A stretch of 63,676 nt of DNA, filler included, from Phoronis australis (Eukaryota; Animalia; Phoronida), in the NCBI GenBank assembly GCA_002633005.1. It is 5 parts of 5 records of this genome, joined end to end, with 100 filler letters (N's around TTAATTAATTAA, not from the genome) between each part and the next. Parts side by side here need not be neighbours in the genome. Positions count along the whole stretch, not along the records: positions 17,996 to 45,634 come from NMRA01001312.1; 4 more parts are not named here. One strand, written 5' to 3'. Below are positions 29,293 through 52,939 of this stretch, one piece after another. Both the position numbers and the translations under genes were made by a program. The notes under the pieces are model-generated. The model saw only the letters and a program-made list of their open reading frames with translations. It was not told the DNA's origin and made no database searches. Positions within the stretch are counted from its first letter, which is position 1, and every line of letters starts with the position of its first letter.

Positions 29293-32200
29293 ATGGATGA
29301 CCAAGCTGTGAAGAACACTGCCAATGACGATGGCGGCTTGTCGTGTAAGTACCTAAAGATGACGAATGATTATAGGTGAACGTACTCAGATCTTCGATTA
29401 TTCAGGTATTTCCTGATTCAAGTCTTGCTGAAACAAAACCTCACGTATTCCAAGTTCCAAGTAAACATCGGCCTTAATATTCAATCTTCACAGAACATTG
29501 CTACTGATAAATGTAGCTTGAAAATGTGTAATCAGAGTTCGACACTTATTGTTCTGTTTTAGATTGAACTACCTCTTCTGGCATATCTAAACGTCAAAAA
29601 TCAATTGTGTGGACTGTATTTTTATGAGGCGTAAGCGCATTGGTTGTGTGTGTGTGTGTGCGTGTGTGTGTGTGTGTGTGCGNATAGGGTTTAACATTTT
29701 TAGCAGAATTTAAATGTAAGGTGAATCAATTTGTCAATGGTGTTCACATTATTTCAACATTTTGCCAAAACAGTTCCGGATGGCGAATCTGCGCAACTGG
29801 ACGAAGAAGAAGCCAAATTATCCTCAACACTAAGAAAATTGACGAAGGAAGACAGAAAAACTAAGACTGGCGGGGAGATACTTAAAAAAATGGGCGAAAT
29901 TCATATGAAACGCGGTTTATTGAAAAACTGTAATCGCCATTTTGTGACTGCATCAGCATTATTTAACGCGGCTTTGATGAGAATTGACGAAGTAAGAATG
30001 ATTAAAGAGATTGAAACATTGATAGGAGAAAACGAAAAAGCTTTCTGCGCCATGGTGTCAGCACCAGGTACAGACCTACCGATGTACTTCAAGTTTGAAA
30101 CCAAGGCAAAACTGGAGAAGACAAGGAGTGAAGTTTTCCCTAAAGCTGAAAAGGCATTAAACGATTTTGCCCACAAACTTAATTTGGAAGCGCCGGAAAG
30201 TGATCGAATACAATTAGAAAAGACATTTTTGGAAGAAACAGAGGCCATCTTTAAGGACATTTGTTCAAGCATACATCTGTTTGACCATTATCTCCTGTCG
30301 AAGTGCCAGGACATCTTGGGACTTCCTCCACAAGAATACACAGCCATAGCCATGGGTTCTTTAGCGAGAGGTGAGGTAACACCGTATTCAGATTTAGAAT
30401 GGGCTATTTTGGTAAAAGATGATACCCAAGATTTGGAGTACTTCAGAAATATGGCCCGACTTATGCACTTGTTTGTTTTGAACATTGGGGAAACAGATTT
30501 GAAGACCATGTGCATCAAGACACTTAATGACTGTGATTCGCGAGGAGAGAATTGGTTTGTAGACGATGTTGTTGCCCGGGGATTTGGCTTCGATAGTGCA
30601 GTTCCTTATGCTTGTAAGACACCACTGGGTCGACCCGACAGACCTGGTAAACCAGGCATTGAATTAATCAGAACGCCCAAAAACATGGCTAAGTTATGTG
30701 ATGTTGAGACAGCTCTTAAGGAGGGCTATAACTTTGATCGTGTTCTAACGACTGTAATCAAACTTGATGGCAGTGATTTACTTCTGAGAGAATTCAAGTT
30801 ATCAAGAGCGAGCAATCAAAGTACAAAAGTTGCACGTTTAAAATATTTATCAGAAATTCGAACTCTAGTCCGGGAATTTCTGCCTCAGCTCAGTTTTTAC
30901 TACGATTTAGAAGCGCGGCATGACATCAAAAAAGAAATGTATAGATTACCGACCTTGGTTATCAGCCTTTTGAGACCTTTGTTCGGTTTGGACAACAACA
31001 ACACGTGGGACATGCTGAATGAAATGAAATCCAAAGGAATATTGTCTGAGGAAGGGGCACACAACTTATTGGTAACAGTCTCCATAGTCAGCCTTTTGAG
31101 ACTGGTGATGTATTGTCGTAAATCCAAACAGGAGGAGTTCTTTGTGTTACTAGGAAGCCCAACGCAAACAAGTCAATCGTCCAAAGAAATGTCGGGATAC
31201 AACATAATATCAACTTTAGTAGTCAGATATTATTTTTCAATATACCCATTTGCTGATTATGTGAGAGATTGTCAGTTTGAAGATGCAATTGCAATGAAAA
31301 AAATAGATGGATATTTTTTCAACAAAAACGAATTGCTCGAAGGTTGCATTGAATTCTCTTGCCGCCGTTTAGAAAAAGCCAGAGAAAAATTTTTCGCACA
31401 CATTGAATCAGTCTCATCAAAGAATTTACGTTTCAATCAAAGTGACCCAGAAGACATAGTGCTTTGCTATAACGGCAGCGATAGTCTTTGTGATCACACA
31501 GACGCGTCGGTTAACGCTTGCCTGAAATTGATTGGTGACTCGTACTTGTTTGGCTCTCAGGCTAGCAGAGCTTTACATTACTATGATCGCGCATTGTGCA
31601 TAGCCGAGAAAAGTATGGGGATTTTCACTGAACGGAGTGGAGCATTAGAGCATGAGTCCTGCTTTCCCGAATCACTGCATACACCCGTAAATATATCTGT
31701 GGAAGTTTTGCTTGCACTCCGAGTCGATGCAGATGGCACGATAGATATATCCAAACACTTTCTGGCCAAGTGTGAGGACACACTTGAAACTACGGAAACA
31801 ATGCTCAACAGAATTGACGAATACGACTACCGGTGTGTTCTTTTACAGCACATTGGTGCAGCACATCGGCTTAAGGGGGATTTCAAGGTAGCCTTGGGAT
31901 ACTTTAAAAAGGCCCTACGAGAATGTAGAGAAATTAAGAGTGTCGGTCTTCTACTAAAAAATATTGCTGATATTTATCAGGTCATGGCTAACTACAAATT
32001 ATCGTTACAATACAGTCAACATTCGCATAACATTATGAACATAATACATTACAGTGTTGAACATCCCGACATCGCTTATGCTTTATATCATATAGGGGGC
32101 GTGTATGATGGTATGAATCAATACAATCTTGCCCTACAATATCATGAAGACTCCTTGAACATGATGAAGAGGATATATGGTGATGTGGACCATCCTGACA

Positions 32201-35200
32201 TCGCGCCTATTTTGAATAGTATTGGGAGAGTGTATAGGCGTACACGAAATTATGGACTGGCCTTACAATATCACCAAGAGTCTTTAAGTATGACGAAAAG
32301 ACTATTTGGTGATGCTGACCATCTCCTCATTGCGTACAATTTGATCGCCACTGGCGATGTGTATCAGGATACGCGAAATCACGAGTTTGCCTTGCATCCT
32401 TATCAAGACGCACTGAGTGTGTTAAAGAGGTTGTTTGGCGATGTTGACCATCTCTTAATCGCTGACACATTGACCAACATTGGGAATGCGTCTATACAAA
32501 TGGAAAGGTATGAAATGGCTTGGAAGAACTTTCAGGAATCACTGAGTATGAGAAAGAGACTTTTCGGTGACAAAGATCATGAAAAAATCGCCGTCGGATT
32601 GGTGTCGGTTGGTGTTTGGTATCATCAGATGGAGAACCACGAATTAGCCTTACAGTATTTGCAAGACAGTTTAAGCATGTTCAAAAGACTGTTTGGTGAC
32701 GTTGATCTTCACGACATTGCTCTAATTTTAGTGAACATTGGTCGTGTGCATGGTGCTATGAATAAGTGTGAGGTAGCTGTGCAATATTGTCAGGACTCAC
32801 TGAGTATGATGAAGAAGATACATAATGATGTTGGTCATCCTGACATTGGAGATATTTTGAGTCACATCGCACAAATCTACCGTAGCGTGGGTAAGCCAGA
32901 GTTGAGCTTAGAATATAGTAAAAGGTCCCTAAGAGTAATGAAGACATTTTATGGTGATGGTGACCATCCCGACATTGCTTTGATTTTAAATGGCATAGGA
33001 GATACGCACTGTAATATGAAAAGGTTCGAGTTAGCAGCACAGTACTTTCAAGAAGCACTGAGTATGAGTAGAAGGATTCATGGTGATGTTGATCATCCCG
33101 ATATTGCGCAGAGCTTACATTCCATAGGGGTTGTACATGTCGATATGAAGATGACTGCGTTGGCTGTGCAACACTTACAAGAATCACTGAGCATGAAAAG
33201 AAGAATTTACCGTAATATTGACCATCCAGACGTTGTCATAATTTTGCGTGACATTGGGTTCGCGTATAATAAGTCTGGTCAATACAAATCAGCTTTAGAT
33301 CATGTTCAAGACTCGCTGAATATGATGAGGAGAATGTATGGTGATGTCGACCATCGTGATATTGCGTTAAGTTTGTGCAGGCTTGGCGATATGTATCTTC
33401 ATGTGAACAAGCGCGAGCTTGCCTTACAGAGTTGTAGAGAAGCACTGGCCATGTGGAAGAGAATACATGGTGATACTGACCATCCTGACATTGCTATAGG
33501 GTTACACTGTGTGGGGTCTCTAAATCGCAACATCAGTCAATACCAGTTATCTTTCCAATACCTTCATGACTCCCTGAGTATGATGAAGAGAATATACGGT
33601 AATGGTGATCATTCTGATATTGTGGAAAGTTTCACAGAAATTGGGCATTTGCATCGTGATATGAAAAAATATGAGTTAGCCTTACAATATTACCAAGATT
33701 CACGAAGTATGATGAAAAGAATCTATGGTGATGTTGATCACACTGAAATTGCTTCAAATTTAGGCTGCATGGGGGACGTGTATAGCGACACGTATAAGCA
33801 CAAGTTAGCCTTGCAATATTTTCAAGACTCATTGAGTATGATGAAAAGGATACATGATAGTGGTGACCACTCTGACATTGCACGGACGTTAGAAGGCATT
33901 GGGTATGTTTATTGCAAGATGGATAAGCACAAGTTAGCCTTGCAATGTCTCCAAGACTCTCAAAGTATGAAGAAAAGAATATATGGTGATGTTGATCATC
34001 CCGAAATTGCTTCAAACTTGAGGTATATCGGGAGCGTGTATAGTGACATGAAAAAGCACAAGTTAGCCTTACAATACTTTCAAAACTCATTGAGTATGGT
34101 GAAGAACATATCTGATAGTGGTGACCACTCCGACATTGCACTGAGGTTACAAGACATTGGGAATGTGTATTGCAAGATGAGTGAGCACAAGTTAGCCTTG
34201 CAATGTCTCCAAGACTCTCACAGTATGATGAAAAGAATATATGGTGATATTGATCATCTTGAAATTGCTTCAAATTTACGCTGTATTGGTATCGTGTTTA
34301 GGGACATGAATAAGCACAAGTTTGCTATACAACACTTTCAAGACTCATTGAATATGGTGAAGAGGATATGTGATAATGGTGGCCACTCTGACATTGCATT
34401 GGGTTTAAGGCTCATTGGGAGTGTATATTACGAGATGGATAAGCTCGAATCAGCTTTGCAATATTTTCAGGATTCTCAAAGTATGTGGAAAATGATTTAT
34501 GGTGATGTTGATCATCCTAAAATTGCTTCGAATTTAGGTTGTATTGCGGGCGTGTATAGCAACATGAATAAGCACGAGTCAGCCTTACAATACGCTCAAG
34601 ACTCATTGAATATGAAGAAGAGGATATATGATAACGGTGACCACTCTGACGTTGCACTGAGTTTAGGGATTTGTGGTAGTGTGTATCGTCAAATGCAAAA
34701 TTACGAGTTAGCCTTGCAATATTACCAAGATTCACGAAGTATGATGAAAAGAATGTATGGTGATGTTGATCATCCTAAAATTGCTTCAAATTTGGTCTGT
34801 ATAGGGCGGGTGTATAAAGACATGGACGAGAGCGAGTTAGCCTTACAATACGCTCTAAAATCTAGCAGTATGATGAAAAGGATATATGATGATTGTGACC
34901 ACTCTGACATTGCACTGAGTTTAGGGCTCATTGGGAGTGTGTATTGCAAGATGGATGAGCACAAGTTAGCCTTGAAATATCTCCAAGACTCTCAAAATAT
35001 GATGAAAAGGGTGTATGGTGATGTTGATCATTCTCACGTTGCTGAAATGTTTCGCCAAATTGGATTTGTGTATACAAAATTGGGTAAGCTAGACTCAGCA
35101 TTGGAATGCTGCCAGAAATCGTTAGATATGACGATTAGATTGGAAAACGGGCTTGATCATCCTGATACTGCCACTCTCTTGAAGGAAATTGGGTCCCTCT

Positions 35201-35421
35201 GTTTCGCTATGGGTAAATTAGACATGGCAATGCGCAGTTACTTGGAGGCCTTTGTAATGAGAGAACGACTTGGTTGTAACAACGACAGCTGGGACAATGC
35301 AGTCATGTTGAGTGAAATGAGTGAGGTGTACAAACAGAGAGGTAAATATAAAATGAGTGAAAAATATCTGGAAGATTCAAAGAAAATGTTCAAAAGGTTG
35401 TCTGTCTCTTTGACTGAATAG
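29293..35421 (+). CDS. Nucleotidyltransferase (Pol-beta superfamily, GlnD/GlnE/DUF294-like) fused to a long 43-aa TPR array; exons 29293-29344 and 29774-35421, ~1900 aa
   Basis: 1896-aa open frame 29731-35421. It carries AMGSLARGEVTPYSDLEWAILV (hGS-x10-DhE NTase motif, ~30349-30414), a helical region DIKKEMYR...TWDMLNEMKSKGILSEEGAHNL...LLRL resembling DUF294_C, and tandem HPDIA..L..IG.VY...ALQY.QDSL.M.KRIYGDVD repeats. The ORF-track TTG start is unlikely. ATG 29293 (MDDQAVKNTANDDGGLS+T) is followed by donor GTAAGT at 29345, and acceptor AACAG at 29769-29773 restores the frame (phase 1: T|TT CCG GAT). Confidence 0.9.
32062..35286 (+). repeat. Coding tandem repeat: 25 x 129 bp (43-aa TPR units), followed by a degenerate 26th capping unit
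   Basis: CATCCCGAC (HPD) at 32062 and CATCCTGAT at 35158 lie exactly 24 x 129 bp apart, and every unit is 43 aa in the translation. Confidence 0.95.
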
Positions 35422-37045: not shown

Positions 37046-37906
37046 CTATTGAGATTTGAGAAGAGAATATTTCCGTCTGTCTAGTGTTATAAGTGTGTCG
37101 GGCTGGTTACCAAGCTTGTTGCGCAGGTGTTCAGACTTTCCTTTGAAACACTCGCGGTAAACCTTAAATCCCAAAAAGACTAGTTGAATGACGAGGATAA
37201 TGGTGGCGAGAACGAGAAGCCCCACCGACAGTCCTTCTAATCGAGTGCAGATGTTGACGATAAGTTGAATAAGTCGCGTCGTGTGCAGAACGTGGTGGAC
37301 GAAAACGTGACGGAAGTACTCCCTGAATATAACTTGTTCCAAAAACACCACGACGGGTATGGTTAGGTAATAGAAAAACACGTGACCGTAGAGACCCATG
37401 AAATCGTCGGGGAAGAGATATTTCCAGCGCTGATCCATGACGATCGTGATGCTGCAGAGAAGAATGTGATGATCCCAACCAGCGTACACTGAAAGCCCGT
37501 TGGTGACAAGCCACTTGATCAAACAGAGATCCCATTCGTGAAGTTCCCTCCGCAGCAGGGCATGATTGTCGTGCAGTCTCTTAAGGACAGATACGAGACA
37601 TACAACAGCGCAGATGACGCGAGTGAGAGACAGAAACATGGACCATTCAAAATCACGCGAGTGGACCAGTAATCTCCACCAGGTGCCGCTGATGATGAAG
37701 CTTGAGCCGTACATAAAATAAAAGTTCTCGCTGAACAACTCCGGATAACAGTAGACATAGTTCATCGTTCCGTTCACTCGGAATATACTGCTAGCTATAT
37801 AGACGATCACTGCAAACTGCCATGCCATGACCAAAACGCCAACCAGTTGTTCAAAGTGAAATGTTCCATATTTCAAAGGAACTGTAAAAGGGTCGATGAG
37901 AGCCAT
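37046..37906 (-). CDS. Multi-pass membrane protein, 286 aa; divergent member of the uncharacterised TspO/tryptophan-rich-sensory-like family of invertebrates and fish
   Basis: Uninterrupted ORF with several hydrophobic segments. AWQFAVIVY, YPELFSENFY, DLCLIKWLVTNGLSVYAGW and FLEQVIFREYFRH recall that family's consensus (AWQ..W..Y / DLW.IR.LVQNG...YATW / LEN...D.Y.RY). The 5' end may belong to an upstream exon. Confidence 0.65.
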   Translation of the reverse strand: MALIDPFTVPLKYGTFHFEQLVGVLVMAWQFAVIVYIASSIFRVNGTMNYVYCYPELFSENFYFMYGSSFIISGTWWRLLVHSRDFEWSMFLSLTRVICAVVCLVSVLKRLHDNHALLRRELHEWDLCLIKWLVTNGLSVYAGWDHHILLCSITIVMDQRWKYLFPDDFMGLYGHVFFYYLTIPVVVFLEQVIFREYFRHVFVHHVLHTTRLIQLIVNICTRLEGLSVGLLVLATIILVIQLVFLGFKVYRECFKGKSEHLRNKLGNQPDTLITLDRRKYSLLKSQ

Positions 37907-40900
37907 TATCTTCGCGCGCTGGTCGACATCGTAAGTAAAATAGAGGTAGATCCTATCGGATCTGCTTCAATAATGCTGTACCCTAATCCGTCATTACTAT
38001 TACTGTGTGACGAACCTGCTGTTTGGTTTACGACGAAAGCATTACAGGCCACGCTACGAAATTAATGCGGTCCACGCATCGTCTGTGACTACAGTTGGTA
38101 ACGGAAATAGAATCCAGTCACGGTAAGGAATATTACGACACCACTTTATGAGAGTAAATGGCCTAATTCAATTTTTGTTTTAGCCAGGTTCAGGCGAAAT
38201 GCAGCTCTAACCAACCAGGACGCATGGTTCAGGTAAAAATTGCAAGATTACTCAAAAGTGGTATGCAAATGGTCAATTAGATATAGATAAAAAGAAAAGT
38301 TGCCCTTTGTGTAGAAGTTTCTTTGTCAGTTTGGCATATACCGTGATTTCCTGTAGATAAGCCCACCCGATGAAACGCCCATTGGCGTTTATTCGAAAAA
38401 TTTTGACACATAAACGCCCGTGGGCATTCAGTTGGTGTTATAATTTCTAGTGCCAAGTGTTCAGATAGTGAGGGCGTTTATTTGGAAAATTTCCTCTTAA
38501 ATGCCCACTCAGCGTCAACTTTTTGTCACAAATTCAATTTTGCGAAGCATTTATCATTGATAATAACGAACACGATGTTGGCGAACTATGCATTTATTAA
38601 CATAAAACACAGTTTTAAGTGAACAAAAATATGAAAGTCATCAAAAATATGACTTGCCGTTTACATGCTCTCCTTCGTTAATTTTGGTGTTGCAAAACGC
38701 CTAAATTTTTTCATTACTCAAATACACACCCATGAGCTTATCTACGGAAAATGCCAGTATGAAATTTACTCATTATAAAGTGTATTTTGGGCCTTTCGAG
38801 TCGACTTCTATCAAAAAAGTAATAAATAGTCTAAACCAGAAGTATAAAACTTAGACAGTCGCACCTGCAGTGTGCTTGATCTGTACCTACTGGTTATATT
38901 ACTTTGGTTATTACTGCAAATACAATGCAAAATAATAATAGATAAGCCCAGAAAGCACTGGAAACCGTTATATAAAGGCGCAACTTTTTCTGGCAAATCA
39001 GCGCCCAAGTCAAACGGTAAATGGTTACGTACCGAGGATGAGGTTATCAGAACGAGGCGAGAGAACTTGCCATGAAATGTTGAAGCTGTTCAGTCAAACG
39101 ACGACAACCTTAACAGCATGCTGCAATTCACGGTACGCGAGGGCAAAACTGTCGTACATCCTGTCGATGTAAGTTGGGTAGGGGGCTATCTAATGCTGTG
39201 AAACTAACCTGAAGACCACCACGTGATCGCCTTGCATGTCAACTCAGCCGAGTAGCAGACGAATAACGAGCCAATGAGCACTAGTAGACCTTTGTTGTGG
39301 ACAGGCTTCCAAGAAAATCCCTAAAAAGTTTGAAGAATGTCATTCTCAGTGAATCGCAATACAAAAAACTCTCCATGTACGAGTATATCGACATTATTCT
39401 CCATTCAGCTAACTGGCTGGCTAGCTTTTATCCTTTTTGCGATAACGTTGGTTGCAATAATTCGCCTGCTGATTACCCTAACGACCACAATGACTCGGTA
39501 ACTGCACCAAACCCGCCGTGACAAGCAACTAAATGGCGTGGTCTGAAGGAACAACATTCTACTGGTTGAGTCTTCTTCAGCAGAGAAATCATTTACTATC
39601 CGAGAAAGGTTCATGACATTGAGTTTAGAAGTCACAGGTGGCCTGAATAAAAAGGTTGCTTTCACAGGATATTTAGAATATTGCCGGGTTATTCTCTGAA
39701 AGACTCGTAATCAGGAGGTGCGTCTCTTTCATTATCGGGAAAAGTTTCGACAGGGAAAATAATCTTACTCCCTCATAGTTGTTAACACGGTCCTTGTCTT
39801 TGGAATTCCAAGCTGGTATAACCTCTAATGGGGCTATTCGGAAAATCTACAATAACTAGAGGGCGTGCGTGTACTAGTGGTGATAGATAAACAGCCTCGA
39901 TTTCGCGAGCCCTTTTTAAAAATACATGGTGAAATGGCTTGCAGCCGTGCCAACTGAATCTGAGATTGCGTAAAAAGAGTGCTTCTATATGAGAGGAAGT
40001 AAGCACGACCACATACAAAGGTAAGGTTTGTGATTATTTTAACGATTATTCCATGATTATTCTACCGATGCCTGTTAACTGAGGCACTCGCCGTGTCGAC
40101 TTCGCGGCAGTCAGTCGCCAGCCAGAGTCTGGTTAATCTTTGTATGTTGTGATATGTGATACGATACTTAACGTAGCAATCGGGATCTCTTCGTACATCA
40201 AAGCATTATTATTGTTTGGAATGATTTCTCAAAGTTTATCAGTGACAGTTACATCAATCAATGCTGAATGTTTATACTGTCAACTCGATACAGGTTAATG
40301 AGTTAAAATTACAATCCAATCCCAATGGCAAAGGGTACGTGAGTGATAACTATCCATTGCATTAGACTATTTGTTTACTCCCTATCATATGTCTTCTGGA
40401 AATCTATTACACGTTGAAATGGAAATCTATCACGTCAGTTTTCACGTAACCTTTGGTTTTTAGGTTTGAAGGCTTGTACCGTGCAGAGGAGATATGCATC
40501 GCTTCTGCACCGTCCTTGAATGGACAAAAATTGGTTTTCTGCATTTGACTGCAGCTAACCAACAAGATCTTCCCTACTTTCAATATTGGAGACAACGAAC
40601 AAAGCCTTTGAAAAGGAACAGCTTATTTTTAAAGTCATTTTGTTAAATTACTTATTCAGGTCCCGAGGGGGGATTGGCATGGGGGGGTTGTAATCTTTGG
40701 TACAACTGAAGGTGTGGAAATAACAGGTAATACATGTTTGGGGAAAAGAGCATGGTGAGGTAATTCTTAACCTTCACGAAGTCCCTTCAAGTTGATTTCA
40801 TGAAACTGTTTTGCTACTTGTATCAATTGTAAAACCACGAAAATATATTACATTTTCCGAATTCACAGTGACTGAATAGTCTTAACTCATGCCTTGAAAT

Positions 40901-42680: not shown

Positions 42681-44952
42681 GCAAAAGGTACCCGCTCATC
42701 CAAAACCTTTACGGCTAACAGATGGCACTTTCCATCAATCACGTGGTTTGTCGTTTTATCGCCAAAGGGTGGCACTACATATTTCCGGCTGTCGGCCAAG
42801 GGAATAACAATAACAAATTGTCAATGGGCGAGGGACGGACTTGGAGGTTAACATTTTAAGGTGCCGTAAACATTCGACGTCATCAAGTGCTTAGGACTGA
42901 ATGTGATTCACTTAACACAATTCTTACTCATTTAAAATCTCACTGCTCTAAGTTTAAAATCTCACAGTCTGAACTTTCCCTGCCTATTTTTCTTGCCTGT
43001 TGTGTTGCCAGTGCTGGGCTGAAGTTTGTCTTGGCCCGATGCCTGCCAAAACCAAAGTACCAATAAGCTTCAAATGTGAAACTAGAGAACACCCCCTCCT
43101 CCTTNGTGCTGGGCTGAAGTTTGTCTTGGCCCGATGTCTGCCAAAACCAAAGTACCAATAAGCTTCAAATGTGAAACTAGAGAACACCCCCTCCTCCTTC
43201 ATCCAGGCTTGGGACTGGCAAGGTGTTTTGATGCAAGCACCTTGGCGGAGTTAGGTGATTTTACCTTTTGTGAACCAGCTTCAATTTCCAATTATCTTCA
43301 ATTTCCCAAATATTTTCAATTTCCAAATAAATGCCACTTTTCATATTAACCATTGGTACTGCTTAATTTTATCAATTGGTGAGAACTGTTCATTGGGTGA
43401 ATCTCAATAGCACAACTATTTTTTTCTCAATTCACAGATTGTACCCAACAAAATCCTCTTTTTTGCAAAAATCTTGTGAATTACAGTTGAAGAAGGCTCA
43501 CTTTAAATAATAACAACGTTGTGCAAGAATCCAAAAAAATTTATTTCTTCAAAGTAATACAATTGCCATTAGCTCGCTATATACTTCTACTAAGACTAAC
43601 CAGCGTAAACACTCTGTATGTAAACATGAGCAAAAGTCACGGTGTAATGAATAGATCATCACTAAGGCATCAGAAGTGATTTCACAGTCAATACATATTA
43701 ATAAATTACACGTGTATATTAATGAATGCAACATGAATAAATAAATAAAGCAAAATATGTTGCCATGCCCACAAGACTCATGGTCCGTTTACTCTTGTAT
43801 TTCCGTGTCACATGTTAAACAAAACCAGTTTACGACGGGAGGTGGTGGATTGTCTTCCATCAAGTTAACACATTTGAAATGGAACCAGTCATCACATTTA
43901 TGACATTGGATTGATGGTGCGACACCATCATCTGGATCGGAACATTCCATGTTACAAACAGAACAGAAGAAATGTTGCAAACTGGTTTTAGGTTTGTTTC
44001 TTTGTTTTTGAAATCAACTTCGTCTTCTGCTTTGCAATGTTCGCTAAACCTGTTTTTTTTGATGCTGCCAGCTCATTCAGTTTGTTGAGTGGAAATTTAT
44101 TCATTTTTGAAAGGCAAGCATCCTTTTCTTTGAAAGCTGCAGTTGCAGCTGAATGTTCCTTAAGATGGCCGCGAAAAGCTTGAAGGTTGTTAAAAACTAC
44201 ACTTTCACCATTTTGTTGACAGTATCCACACCTCCTCTTCTTGTGCTTAAATTCAATGTGTCTTTCTAGTGATTTCTCATTTGTAAAATAAAATGGTTTG
44301 CTGACACCTTCTAAAATACAAGTGTTACAAACCTGCAACTCCTCGAGTATTTCATTGCTGAAGTTGGAAGCTATGTACTGTGAACACTGGTTTTCTTTTA
44401 TTGGCTTGAATTTATTCACAGGAACAGGGTCTTGTATGTAAGTAGACAAGTCTATTGCATTTTCCACCTCACCAGTTTTGGTTCGTATAGATCCTATTAT
44501 GTCCTTACCCAGTGCTTTCATTCCAGATTGTGCAACTTCAATAAAAATTTTTCTTGTAGCTTTTCTTTTTGTTTTCCTCCCACAAAATGTTTCTTTTGAC
44601 TTGTCAGGTCTTGGTAATATAGGTCTGTACGATATCAGTAAATAATGATATACAATAAACGTTTAATCTACAATCAAACACCTTAATACTACTACTAGAA
44701 TTTAAATCACACTTAAAATATTTATAAACAATGGTAGTCCTGAAAAGGACTGCTGAGTTAATCAGAATTACGATCGATGAATAATTCACGAAATCGCAAC
44801 ACGCCTCGTCTCAAATAGGACTGTCTGCTATCTGTCAGATTTCCTGCAAGAACGTCACATGACTGCAAGCAGCGCTACCTGTTAGTAAAGCGTCATTGCA
44901 TCCAGCGCCATCTGTTAGCCGTAAAAGTTTTGGATGAGCGGGTACCTTTTGC
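42681..44952. mobile_element. Non-autonomous TIR element with 9-bp TSD (Mutator/MULE- or Merlin-type)
   Basis: 46-bp TIRs GCAAAAGGTACCCGCTCATCCAAAAC(C/T)TTTACGGCTAACAGATGGC (42681-42726 / 44907-44952, one mismatch); TSD ATTGCTGAA at 42672-42680 and 44953-44961. Confidence 0.9.
43789..44521 (-). pseudogene. Two C2H2-like zinc fingers plus C-terminal PHD finger, split by one frameshift; cargo of the TIR element
   Basis: CNTC..HIEFKH and CGYC..HLKEH in 43988-44521; C4HC3 PHD (CSVC..IQCHKCDDWFHFKC..WFCLTC) in 43789-43980; the frames differ by 1 nt across an A-rich tract. Confidence 0.8.
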
Positions 44953-49162: not shown

Positions 49163-50071
49163 CTAATAGCTTAGTTTATTTAAGTCATGTTGAAGCTGCA
49201 AAGAACATTCAGGGCTGCTCCCTGCGAAGGGGTGAAAAAGCGCCGTGTCATCTGCATAAAGGTATGTGCTACATGACAGGTTATCAGGAAGGTCATTAAT
49301 ATAAACCAAGAAGAGAAGAGGACCCAATACGCAACCCTGCGGTACACCTGCGTTTACAAATCCAGGAGGGGATAAAATTGAAAGTACGCCGTCGACACGA
49401 ACACTGTATGTTCTTTCGGAGAGATATGAGGTGATCATGTTTAAAAGATTACCAGTAATGCCATAGGATCCTAGTTTGTGAAGTAGAAGGTCGTGAGGGA
49501 CACAGTCAAAAGCAGAAGCTATATCTAGAAAAATGGACCTGACACTCTCGCCCTTCTCAAAATGTAAATGAATCTCATGTACTATTTCAACAAGTTGTGT
49601 CACGGTGCTGTTCCCACGCAAAAAAACAAATTGACGATGATAGATCAAGTTGTTTTGTTTGAGAAATGTAAGAATACTTTGAGCAATGATCTTCTCGAAG
49701 ATTTTGGACAGGGTGTTAAGTAAAGTTATTGGGCTGTAATTTGAAATTTCAGTTTTGGAGCCTTTTTTGTGTATAGGGACCATAATTCCATGTTTCCAAG
49801 AAGACGGATAAATGCCTAGCTGAAGAAGTTTGTTAAACAGATTGGTCAGGGGCATGGTAATTTCGTTGGAAATCATTTTGATCATCTTGCTGGTTATTAA
49901 AGCTGTGCCATCATTCTTATTGGGGTCAATTTCATTGAGATACTTCCGGACATCAGTTTGATTAGCCGGGATGTCAGACAGTTGATTGAGACATCGTTCA
50001 CGTAGAAAGGGAAAGTTACTTACTTCAGTTGGTGTAATGTGGCTTTTGTTCGTGAAAAATTTGAGAAACAA
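49163..50071 (-). pseudogene. LINE ORF2 reverse transcriptase fragment
   Basis: RT motifs including PQG and YADD; ends at a stop near a repeat and single-N junction. Confidence 0.92.
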
Positions 50072-50290
50072 ATCACACTTGTCACTGCTACTTGAGGCTA
50101 GGTTACCATTATAGTTGATGACAGGATATGAGGATTGCTGTTGACTGCCGCGTATTTTATTTATTCCAGTATTCTTTGGAATTCTTGCTTGCGCTGTTAA
50201 TTTGTTGAAAAAGCTTGTGTCAGTGATCAGCTTTGGCTTGATTTACTAAAGTTTCAACCAGACATGTCTGCTCCTAGTATCTGTTGTAGA

Positions 50291-51793
50291 TTATAGTGTT
50301 GTTAGATCTTCTGAAAGAGCTGTAAAGTCTGTTTTTGTACGGATTGCCCGTTTAACATTATTGTTGAACCACGGTTGGCTGTTGTGTTTAATTATCTTTT
50401 CAGTTGATGGGATGTTGTTTTTTAAGATTTCATAGAGAGTACTAGTGAAGAGTGAAACAGTGTCATCAATGTCGCCAGTGTTCAATATGGAATCCCAGTC
50501 AGTGTTTGTGATATCCTGACGCAGTTTATCGGTGTCGACCTGATCATATTTCCAATTGGTTCGAGTGGTGTGTTGTTCTTTAACCGTTTTTTTAAGTGTT
50601 AGAGTGGTTTCGATTGTGTGGTGATCAGAATTGCCAACAGGAGGTAGTACAGAATATGAGTCAATGATACTCAAATTGTTTGTTATAGAGAGGTCAATAC
50701 ATGAATGAGAAACGTCGGTGATACGGGTTGGCTCATTAATTAGTTGTATGCAGTCATTAGACAATAAGATATCAAACAATTGTAGTCCGGCCGTATTGTC
50801 ATGATCATCATTGTACCATGTAGAGTTTCGGGCATTGAAATCACCATTTATGATTATACTAACGCTATTGCGGTTAAGTTCCGCTAACTGATCGGCTAGG
50901 GCTTTGAAGTAGAGTTTGCTTTCAGTTGGAGATTGAACAGGTGAGAGATAAAACAACCCATAGTAAATTTTACTGTGATCGAAATAAATTTCGATCCAGC
51001 GGTTGCATAACTGAGGACAAGTTAAGCTAGGACATGATTTAAATGAGAGTGTGTTTTTAGTGAATAAGATGATGCCACGGCCACTGTTACTGTGATGGGC
51101 TACACTGTAACCAGGAATGATTAGTTCATTATCAAGGTCGTCTTTGGTAACATTACAAGTTTCACAAAGAGCGACAATCATATATTCGTAAGACAGAACA
51201 AAGTTTTTTAGAAGTTGAAATCTGGAGAAATTGTTGGATTTAATGCTGTTACTATTTGAAAATAAGATTTTAAAGGTAGTATTGTCTTCAGGCCCAGGAT
51301 TTTCTTCAACATCGCCAGCTAAAAGGAGGCACATGCCAACGACGATTCCGTAATCCATACAGGTGTTATGTAAACAATAGTAAGACACATCAGTAAGCTG
51401 AACCCGCATAGCGTGATATCTCATTCGATGCCGGTGAGAGGAATTGAACTGTGACAATGAGGGGGAAAACATGGTAAGACCAGAGAAACTCACACTACTC
51501 GAGGCACTCAAAGGATAGCCGTATGTAACAATTAATACACCAATGCTTGTTGAAAGTTCAAGGGTTGTTAAATGAATAAGGTAGTCTGGACAATTAGGGG
51601 AGTCATTTTTAAAAAACAAAATTATATCATAGGCTCGCTTACAGGTACATAAATAGCAACTTAGTTGAAAAGCACAACATATAAAATCAATCTTGGGAAA
51701 CCAGTTAGTTCTGTTGCAAGTGAATACAAAACACATAGATAATGATTGACCTAAAGATACAATGTCATGTATGTACAGAGGAAATATGACCAA
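50291..51793 (-). pseudogene. LINE ORF2 5' part: 2A-like peptide plus APE endonuclease
   Basis: LLLAGDVEENPGP immediately followed by the APE domain; the frame breaks before the RT. Confidence 0.9.
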
Positions 51794-52939
51794 ATAGTAA
51801 CGGACAGAAGAAGGTGAAAAATAAGAGTTTGAACACTCAAATTCGCTGAAGAAAACAAAAAAAGATGTATTGAAGTTCTCTCACTATGGATAACTTAGCT
51901 GTAACACGTTTTAGAATTGATAAAAGGCTATGAGTTCTTACCACTATAGGCCACCTAGTAATGACTGATCAGCTCATGTGTTCGGTGGTGTCTTCTGAAT
52001 TGAAGTAAACTTTCTCACAGATTGAAACACCAGTTTTCACAGGGATTATTTCAACTTGAAACTCATTATAAACTAAATCATGGTGACAGACAGTGCTCAG
52101 CGTGATTTTTTCACGGGCAAACTAAAACAGTAATAACCAATTAATGATATGGGGAATCATTCGGAAACCCACAACAAAAATCACATGTAGTTGTAGATTC
52201 TGCACCTGACTGACAGAGAACAGAACAAGTGCCTAGAAATTAAAATCAATATTATAGTGATTGAGAGGTGTCAATAACATGACCGAACAGAATTGCCACA
52301 CAAAATCAGTGACATGTAAATTTATCCTGACAGACAATTCGATATGGAGTTGTCCACAAAATCAACGTTCTGAGAAACACAGCAGTCAGAAAAAAAATTA
52401 TATCAGGGACAGCCACTAAGGCCTGAGCTCACATATCAGAATCATTGTCTTATGTGAATATCATGCAATGTACAATTCCGTCACGCATTCAATTAAAATG
52501 TGGGAAACATGTTTTAACAACAACCAAAAATACCACATTAATACATACTGTAGGCAGTTGCAAAGACACTGTATTACATTTTTGGTAAGGGTGCAACTGG
52601 GAAACAGTAAGAGGCAATAAGCAACAAAACCCATGCTCCAAACATGAATGATTTAGATGCATATTAAGGATTCGATGCATAACCATTGCCTGTGGTCAGT
52701 ATAAGGTGTTGTGATCGCTACGGACCTGTATAGAGTGCGCCACTACTGATAGAGAGGTAACTTGAGCGTGATCTGGTATTACATAAGGGAGAAAACTGAA
52801 TAAGTATCAGTGGACAGGACAATTACCTGATCCTGTCAAGACATGGGGGTGGGGTGAGTGAACGCAAAAAAGTGAGGGATGTCACCAGTGAGTAATTGGA
52901 TATGAACTACAATAGGACGAGAGAGCAGAATACAATTTA

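Follow-up and report, generated by a model that had tools for sequence, protein, structure and literature searches.

Only Fic and SelO are listed as metazoan AMPylases in a 2021 review (PMC8097203), and for eukaryotes a 2025 review gives the same pair (PMC12409994). The Neochlamydia NEX2 family carries DUF294 together with C-terminal tetratricopeptide repeats (TPRs; PMC4209131). In co-crystals of HOP, TPR positions 2, 5, 6, 9, 12, and 13 are ligand contacts on the concave face, and the asparagine at position 6, which is often present and modestly conserved, binds the peptide backbone (Magliery and Regan, 2005, PMC1261162). Long units resembling those of kinesin light chain (KLC), with concave variable sites and repeat shuffling, are described for fungal NLR proteins (Dyrka et al., 2014, PMC4986451) and for Ectocarpus NB-ARC-TPR proteins (PMC3341825). 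Here we analyze a gene of Phoronis australis (assembly GCA_002633005.1) that encodes a predicted nucleotidyltransferase followed by 25 TPR units. It lies on the part taken from NMRA01001312.1 within the window, by which we mean the whole 63,676-nucleotide stretch of five joined parts that was analyzed. The open reading frame (ORF) spans 29725..35421 on the plus strand, 1898 codons from stop to stop with the first ATG at 29737.

We favor, with a probability of about 0.55, the reading that the protein joins a putative DrrA/GlnE-fold enzyme, likely a protein nucleoside monophosphate (NMP) transferase, to a TPR groove that changes near the neutral rate and holds no residue code. The gene is a variant of a known enzyme plus TPR architecture, and its distinctive traits are the enzyme domain and the lost Asn ladder of its repeats.

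A Predicted Nucleotidyltransferase Precedes the TPR Repeats

The fusion partner of the array is a nucleotidyltransferase rather than an NLR-type NTPase, a point that the initial annotation of the repeats had overlooked. The enzyme region, a DrrA/GlnE-type Pol-beta nucleotidyltransferase with a DUF294-like helical partner domain according to Pfam, a structural model, and fold matches, lies at 30079..31293 on the plus strand. Pfam DUF294 matches residues 192-247 above its cutoff (E 9.7e-7). The predicted model of residues 42-562, with a predicted local distance difference test score (pLDDT) of 75.8, contains both the Pol-beta fold and the helical partner domain. It matched the adenylyltransferase region of DrrA (6yx5_B; VIA Z 20.2, 317 aligned residues, root-mean-square deviation 3.9) and both GlnE domains (Z 19.0 for 1v4a_A and 18.6 for 3k7d_B); the next unrelated row scored 7.9. 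Foldseek agrees on a DrrA/GlnE-type fold (E 4e-5 to 3e-4).

The catalytic motif G-X11-D-x-E, at residues 211-225 (30355..30399, plus strand), fits the published form of the AMPylase motif, G-X11-D/E-X-D/E (PMC8097203); 33 of 34 relatives retain it. A GFxFD motif is invariant in 13 of 13 aligned rows; its Asp is a candidate further acidic metal ligand, in a region where model confidence is low. Compared with DrrA/SidM (PDB 6yx5, 3nku) and Escherichia coli GlnE (1v4a, 3k7d), the predicted catalytic and helical fold and the motif are alike, whereas identity reaches only 9-15% and a TPR array is fused to the Phoronis enzyme. Neither the guanine nucleotide exchange factor and lipid-binding domains of DrrA nor the second catalytic domain of GlnE is evident in the Phoronis protein.

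In the mechanism that we propose, the nucleotidyltransferase would attach AMP, or possibly a different NMP, to a hydroxyl group of a protein in a Mg-dependent reaction, and the TPR groove would pick the target or trigger, or relieve inhibition. The groove, which has also lost an Asn kept by relatives, may have been freed from any fixed ligand; its varied surface would then have arisen through drift and the shuffling of half units, perhaps aided by episodes of selection, instead of forming a residue-by-residue code. If active, an expressed, motif-intact DrrA/GlnE-fold protein of an animal would add an AMPylase class, and we regard the Phoronis protein as a candidate for a third class in animals. 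The main value of the finding lies in the fusion partner, to which the Phoronis copy adds a groove without the Asn that all 71 related arrays examined keep.

The assignment to protein-modifying enzymes is weakened by the presence of antibiotic nucleotidyltransferases in the same fold family (Z 7.5 and 6.2), and by the enzyme domain itself, which has a long branch of 1.6 in the tree and deviates at several near-invariant columns. Signal synthases also belong to the Pol-beta superfamily, and the weak matches to aminoglycoside nucleotidyltransferases would fit an enzyme that produces a nucleotide signal, or acts on a small molecule or an RNA end, with the TPR array as its regulatory sensor. We consider this unlikely, because the three best matches, far ahead of the others, are all enzymes that modify proteins and extend over the catalytic as well as the helical domain, and because no cGAS, OAS, or RelA structure occurs among the matches listed.

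Variable Residues Map to TPR Groove Positions

The array occupies 32062..35286 on the plus strand, exactly 25 × 129 nt in frame within the ORF, and was assigned by translation, a five-unit model, and Foldseek as 25 KLC-type TPR units of 43 residues. The initial annotation had correctly described these units as free of indels, and all 25 of the dipeptides it quoted for unit positions 9-10 match. Its conserved scaffold stands for I4 (21 of 25 units), A5 (22), L8 (23), G12 (23), A24 (23), S31 (21), M34 (23), K36 (20), R37 (21), and D43 (23), whereas L23 (16) and L32 (17) are weaker than claimed; position 31 holds S or A in every unit. Entropy is highest at positions 10 and 16 (3.51 bits each), 9 (3.43), 13 (3.19), and 6 (3.07), followed by 19 (2.98), 17 (2.93), and 7 (2.82). 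The variable positions named earlier (6-7, 9-10, 13, and 16-17) do have high entropy, but the list missed turn position 19, which ranks above 17 and 7.

Pfam TPR_1 pairs ORF residue 1776, at unit position 8, with profile position 4. Unit position therefore equals TPR position plus 4, and unit positions 6, 9, 10, 13, 16, and 17 correspond to TPR positions 2, 5, 6, 9, 12, and 13, i.e., the contacts seen with HOP. The five most variable positions are all among these six, which had been named beforehand from the literature; for 5 of 43 positions taken at random, the chance of this is 6e-6. In the five-unit model (pLDDT 95.5), helix A covers unit positions 2-17 and helix B 21-39, which places the variable sites in helix A, on the groove side in the Pfam register. 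On a helical wheel, positions 6, 9, 10, 13, 16, and 17 fall at 160-280 degrees and the conserved positions 4, 5, 8, 11, 12, and 15 at 20-140 degrees. The proposal of a single variable helix face thus holds for these six and fails for position 7, which lies off the face at 340 degrees. The concave location follows from register and helical wheel, not from atomic measurement, and on this basis the variable residues are shown to be ordinary TPR groove positions.

The fold is that of a KLC-type solenoid, with small residues at TPR positions 8, 20, and 27, helix-turn-helix units, and a KLC-like model. The best Foldseek matches of the array model are KLC1/KLC2 (KLC1 E 3e-10) and Podospora 4y6w, and Pfam TPR_12 matches the array at 2e-155. 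The likeness to fungal NLR repeats noted in the initial annotation extends to the concave variable sites and the KLC-like units, and repeat shuffling is likewise shared with the fungal and Ectocarpus TPRs (PMC4986451, PMC3341825). It does not extend to the partner domain, since a Pfam search of the 1898-residue ORF at E up to 0.01 returned no NB-ARC or NACHT domain of a STAND NTPase and the protein has a nucleotidyltransferase instead. The Phoronis units also differ from those fungal and algal repeats in being 41-90% rather than near-identical at the DNA level, with 80-90% reached by part of a young block only, and in a positive selection signal that is lost in rate-aware tests.

For comparison we fetched 151 proteins, 71 of which have at least 10 units in register. 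All 71 of these related arrays vary more at the six groove positions than elsewhere, which makes groove variability a generic pattern. In 40 of the 71, groove positions take four or more of the top five places by variability, and in 7 the groove contrast is as large as in the Phoronis array. Groove variability alone is an already known TPR pattern and is not to be scored as a code. What is unusual here is the loss of the backbone-binding Asn, together with mosaic repeats. Asn occupies TPR position 6 (unit position 10) in 2 of 25 Phoronis units, against a median of 75% in the related arrays; none of the 71 has it at 10% or below, and none is as variable at that position. The Asn ladder, which is typical of KLC-type TPRs but not obligatory, is lacking here. 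Relative to the canonical TPR (PMC1261162), the same groove positions vary, and the difference lies in position 6, modestly conserved there and among the two most variable here.

The initial annotation had read the variable positions as a possible recognition code. A modular code like that of TAL or PPR proteins, with the 9-10 pair of every unit reading a single residue or base along a linear ligand, would agree with the strict register, the absence of indels, and the adjacent variable pair. However, 23 different dipeptides occur in 25 units and GC alone recurs, so no small reused alphabet exists; the variation extends across six groove positions, as it does in TPRs generally, and its rate is near neutral. 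We find no support for a code read unit by unit and hold it to be extremely improbable.

Rate-Aware Models Place Groove Codons Near the Neutral Rate

The initial annotation also proposed diversifying selection on the groove, to be checked with site models. We used self-written codon models (GY94 type), not PAML or HyPhy, with trees from IQ-TREE; the data comprise 43 codons. Models without rate variation gave significant results on 23-25 units, twice the log-likelihood (lnL) difference (2ΔlnL) being 14.6-20.5 for M1a/M2a and 11.3-14.9 for M8a/M8, with omega of 1.8-3.0 at sites 6, 9, 10, 13, and sometimes 16. By age, the signal is weak in the 11 young units (2ΔlnL 6.8-8.2) and non-significant in the 12 old units (2.6-4.8). 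The scaffold outside the groove is shown to be under purifying selection, with a dN/dS of about 0.33 (0.27-0.41; young units 0.55).

The synonymous rate is uneven along the unit. It is 2.3 in the inter-unit linker, 3.5 at conserved twofold codons, and 8.8 (6.0-12.3) at conserved fourfold codons (11.4 after post hoc exclusion of G40), compared with 6.3 overall; the low value of the inter-unit linker lowers the gene-wide dS. Groove codons have a synonymous rate of 12.1 (7.6-20) and a nonsynonymous rate of 11.4 (9.7-13.9). Once rate variation was allowed, the site models no longer detected selection: M1a with rate variation (lnL -2225.6) is better than M2a (-2237.8) and M8 (-2232.4), and the addition of a class with omega above 1 gained 0.0, also with GTR and F61 models and with a tree from helix A only. 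With its own rate, the groove has an omega of 0.94 (interval 0.55-1.65). Per-site tests found beta significantly above alpha at no groove site, and a branch-site mixture was negative (2ΔlnL 0.0-1.4).

Simulations under neutrality with the fitted rate variation made the plain test significant in 25 of 30 runs and brought it to the observed value in 14 of 30. These false positives make the standard test invalid here, and PMC6526913 reports the same general problem. Standard site models can thus mislead on repeat units with uneven synonymous rates. When omega was truly 3, the rate-aware test detected it in 14 of 14 runs simulated without rate variation, and its statistic was 0.5 or less in 0 of 14 such runs and in 1 of 16 with rate variation. 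Under rate-aware models, groove codons are shown to change at about the neutral ceiling, with dN/dS about 1. Diversifying selection is therefore not established, as the plain-model signal falls to 0.0 once rate variation is allowed. A dN/dS at or below 1, which the initial annotation had named as evidence against its proposal, is found under rate-aware models (0.94) but not with a common dS.

Several results pull the other way. With a common dS, the six pre-fixed groove codons have an omega of 2.0 (2ΔlnL 16.8), which remains 1.6 (2ΔlnL 6.8) when multi-nucleotide changes are admitted; the power of the rate-aware test for omega 3 with rate variation is only 8 of 16; and the fast rate coincides with structurally defined codons, which is not expected of mutation alone (0 of 100 random six-codon sets match the synonymous rate of the groove). 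The common-dS omega is 2.2 in young units and 0.41 in an outer-face control set. An omega near 1 could average purifying and positive episodes, or reflect whole-codon replacement.

An alternative reading is a receptor caught in an arms race, with true diversifying selection on the groove codons (omega about 1.6-2), a variable foreign ligand that triggers the enzyme, and a raised groove synonymous rate as a by-product of whole-codon replacement or of scaffold homogenization. In its favor are the significant M1a/M2a and M8a/M8 results at sites 6, 9, 10, and 13, the common-dS omega values of 2.0 and, in young units, 2.2, the replacement rate of 11.4 in the groove against 5.2 at the next six variable positions, and a share of Asn at TPR position 6 below that of all 71 related arrays. 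The groove also has an excess of multi-nucleotide codon differences (13 of 27 vs. 20 of 81, P 0.03), reads of paralogues exist, and fungal and algal TPRs offer a precedent (PMC4986451, PMC3341825). We nevertheless treat this reading as a tentative possibility: the test behind the signal is invalid, the old units alone are non-significant, a true omega of 3 would rarely have yielded the 0.0 obtained, no groove excess appears among the listed allelic differences, and the model with omega 1 and an own groove rate (equal parameters) is ahead by 3.3 lnL, a margin of 1.9 when multi-hit changes are allowed.

A regional cause of the raised groove dS was ruled out, as interleaved conserved helix-A codons have a dS of 9.8 vs. 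22.6. CpG decay as its main cause was ruled out as well: groove codons are richer in CpG (31 of 552 vs. 95 of 3220), but not in CpG transitions (3 of 35 vs. 9 of 80 differences). At the inter-unit linker codons (positions 39-43, 1, 3, and 4; 32062-35028), the very low synonymous rate suggests homogenization by conversion or crossing-over, or a constraint on DNA or RNA.

Repeat History, Transcripts, and Allelic Differences

A younger block, units 13-23 (33610..35028, plus strand), was delimited by Tandem Repeats Finder (TRF) and an identity matrix. It consists of two unit types in alternation, i.e., 258-nt duplications, with at least one mosaic unit; TRF reports a period of 258 with 80% matches. 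Units 13 and 21 differ at 27 sites in their first 63 nt and at 2 in their last 66, and they are the 1 of 55 young pairs with a MaxChi permutation p below 0.01. Half-unit exchange is shown for this one pair; together with such exchange, duplication of single units and of unit pairs enlarged the array. The approximately unbiased (AU) test rejected the tree of each half with the data of the other, but since the two trees had been fitted each to its own half, this result is biased.

RNA run X7 comes from another sample with the same species label. It gave 117 reads, 97 of them with at least 95% identity, which reach 29 of 30 bins and share a single orientation, as sense transcription would give. 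At the stricter setting, no joint among those listed crosses the gene; at a looser setting, six reads connect the point where helix A of unit 23 ends with unit 13, a step of exactly ten units backward that may represent a rearranged allele or a close paralogue. In runs X5 and X6 most matches are partial at 90-95% identity, with loose ends that look like other family members; their lack of full matches may equally reflect a tissue difference or absence of the copy, which are indistinguishable. Runs X1-X4 are from one sample, which may be the source of the window, and are thus not independent. In the DNA run X1, the summed contig depth is about 100-138 at 33640-34941 and about 63 elsewhere, maybe from collapsed repeats or paralogue contigs, and does not give a copy number.

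For allelic differences in the array, X7 rows with a cleanest value up to 6 were used, and 12 rows at 7 or more and one beyond the array were dropped. Groove codons account for 1 of the 27 listed differences vs. 3.8 expected (P 0.09, with thin coverage and divergent reads lost), so the comparison of alleles suggested in the initial annotation reveals no groove excess. In the enzyme domain, 4 of 4 listed X7 differences are synonymous, whereas in the linker behind it (31354-31483) all 6 of 6 change a residue. That segment is relaxed or fast-evolving and possibly bait-like.

The transcripts and differences also bear on the possibility that the gene is a decaying paralogue and its variation a general loss of function. 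Decay would account for the long branch, for the non-groove omega of 0.55 in young units, and for two of three RNA runs without reads of the Phoronis copy except short partial matches. An open frame of 1898 codons, a non-groove omega of 0.33 over all units, an intact motif, transcription, and exclusively synonymous enzyme differences among those listed make it very unlikely.

Distribution of the Enzyme-TPR Architecture

The gene is probably of animal origin, judging from the makeup of the window (few long ORFs, microsatellites, and a LINE-type element) and from its named relatives, which are mostly from lancelets plus a tunicate. Lancelet relatives are 31-37% identical with the same domain order, and their TPR units are mostly 44 residues long, compared with 43 here. 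One lancelet protein (P0001) has two complete enzyme plus TPR modules in tandem. The same order, DUF294 followed by TPRs, was present in 6 of 8 bacterial loci fetched, one of them from Parachlamydiaceae, and Atlas clusters with the architecture are mostly eukaryotic plus one chlamydial cluster. In one uncultured bacterium (L002, L004, L005), several genes of the DUF294-TPR type are about 2000-2200 codons long and two or more of them stand in tandem on one contig, and another bacterial locus (L003) has an extra methyltransferase domain. Among viral contigs, 66 pattern matches contained 0 relatives.

The domain order is thus shared with Neochlamydia NEX2 (PMC4209131) and with unnamed lancelet and tunicate proteins; the Phoronis protein differs in its lost Asn ladder and in that the Pfam search of the 1898-residue ORF found no F-box or OTU domain. 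In a quick tree of enzyme domains with an unresolved backbone, the Phoronis domain joins no supported clade, and no donor or direction of transfer is indicated. Our literature searches found no description of the animal family; the supplements of PMC3710099, PMC3482391, and PMC8195603 could list it.

From the architecture and the paralogues, one may guess at an immune role. A more far-reaching proposal, which we regard as doubtful, is that the protein belongs to a third animal AMPylase class not yet described. Its members would be sensor-enzymes of the host with a DrrA/GlnE fold, also present in intracellular bacteria and multiplied into families of paralogues, in which half-unit shuffling and selection would have diversified the groove, the Asn ladder would have been abandoned, and variable foreign or self proteins would direct AMPylation.

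Other Features of the Gene and the Window

The N-terminal part of the protein comprises predicted TPR-like helices (29863..30057, plus strand; model helices H6-70) with many matches of Z 6-8 to helical hairpins. In the translation, an irregular linker with degenerate TPR-like helices (31357..32061, plus strand) connects enzyme and array, and a degenerate capping unit (35287..35418, plus strand) follows the last repeat. Upstream of the ORF, a possible short coding exon of 52 nt at 29293..29344 (plus strand), predicted only, starts with ATG and ends in a GTAAGT donor in phase 1. It could be spliced in frame to an acceptor preceding 29774, inside the ORF; as donor and acceptor are in phase, the 5′ end of the gene may contain an intron. 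Sense RNA is weak in bin 29300-29516 (depth 0.33) and 0 in the next bin, and none of the reads listed is spliced.

Elsewhere, the window contains few long ORFs, microsatellites, and one element of the long interspersed nuclear element (LINE) type. A 224-codon ORF at 43988-44662 (minus strand) has a weak C2H2 zinc-finger match below the cutoff. A hydrophobic ORF of 306 codons at 37046-37966 (minus strand), without a Pfam match, faces the TPR gene and is possibly an exon of a membrane protein. The LINE-type element, at 49163-51880 on the minus strand, consists of an endonuclease ORF and a reverse-transcriptase ORF with a break between them.

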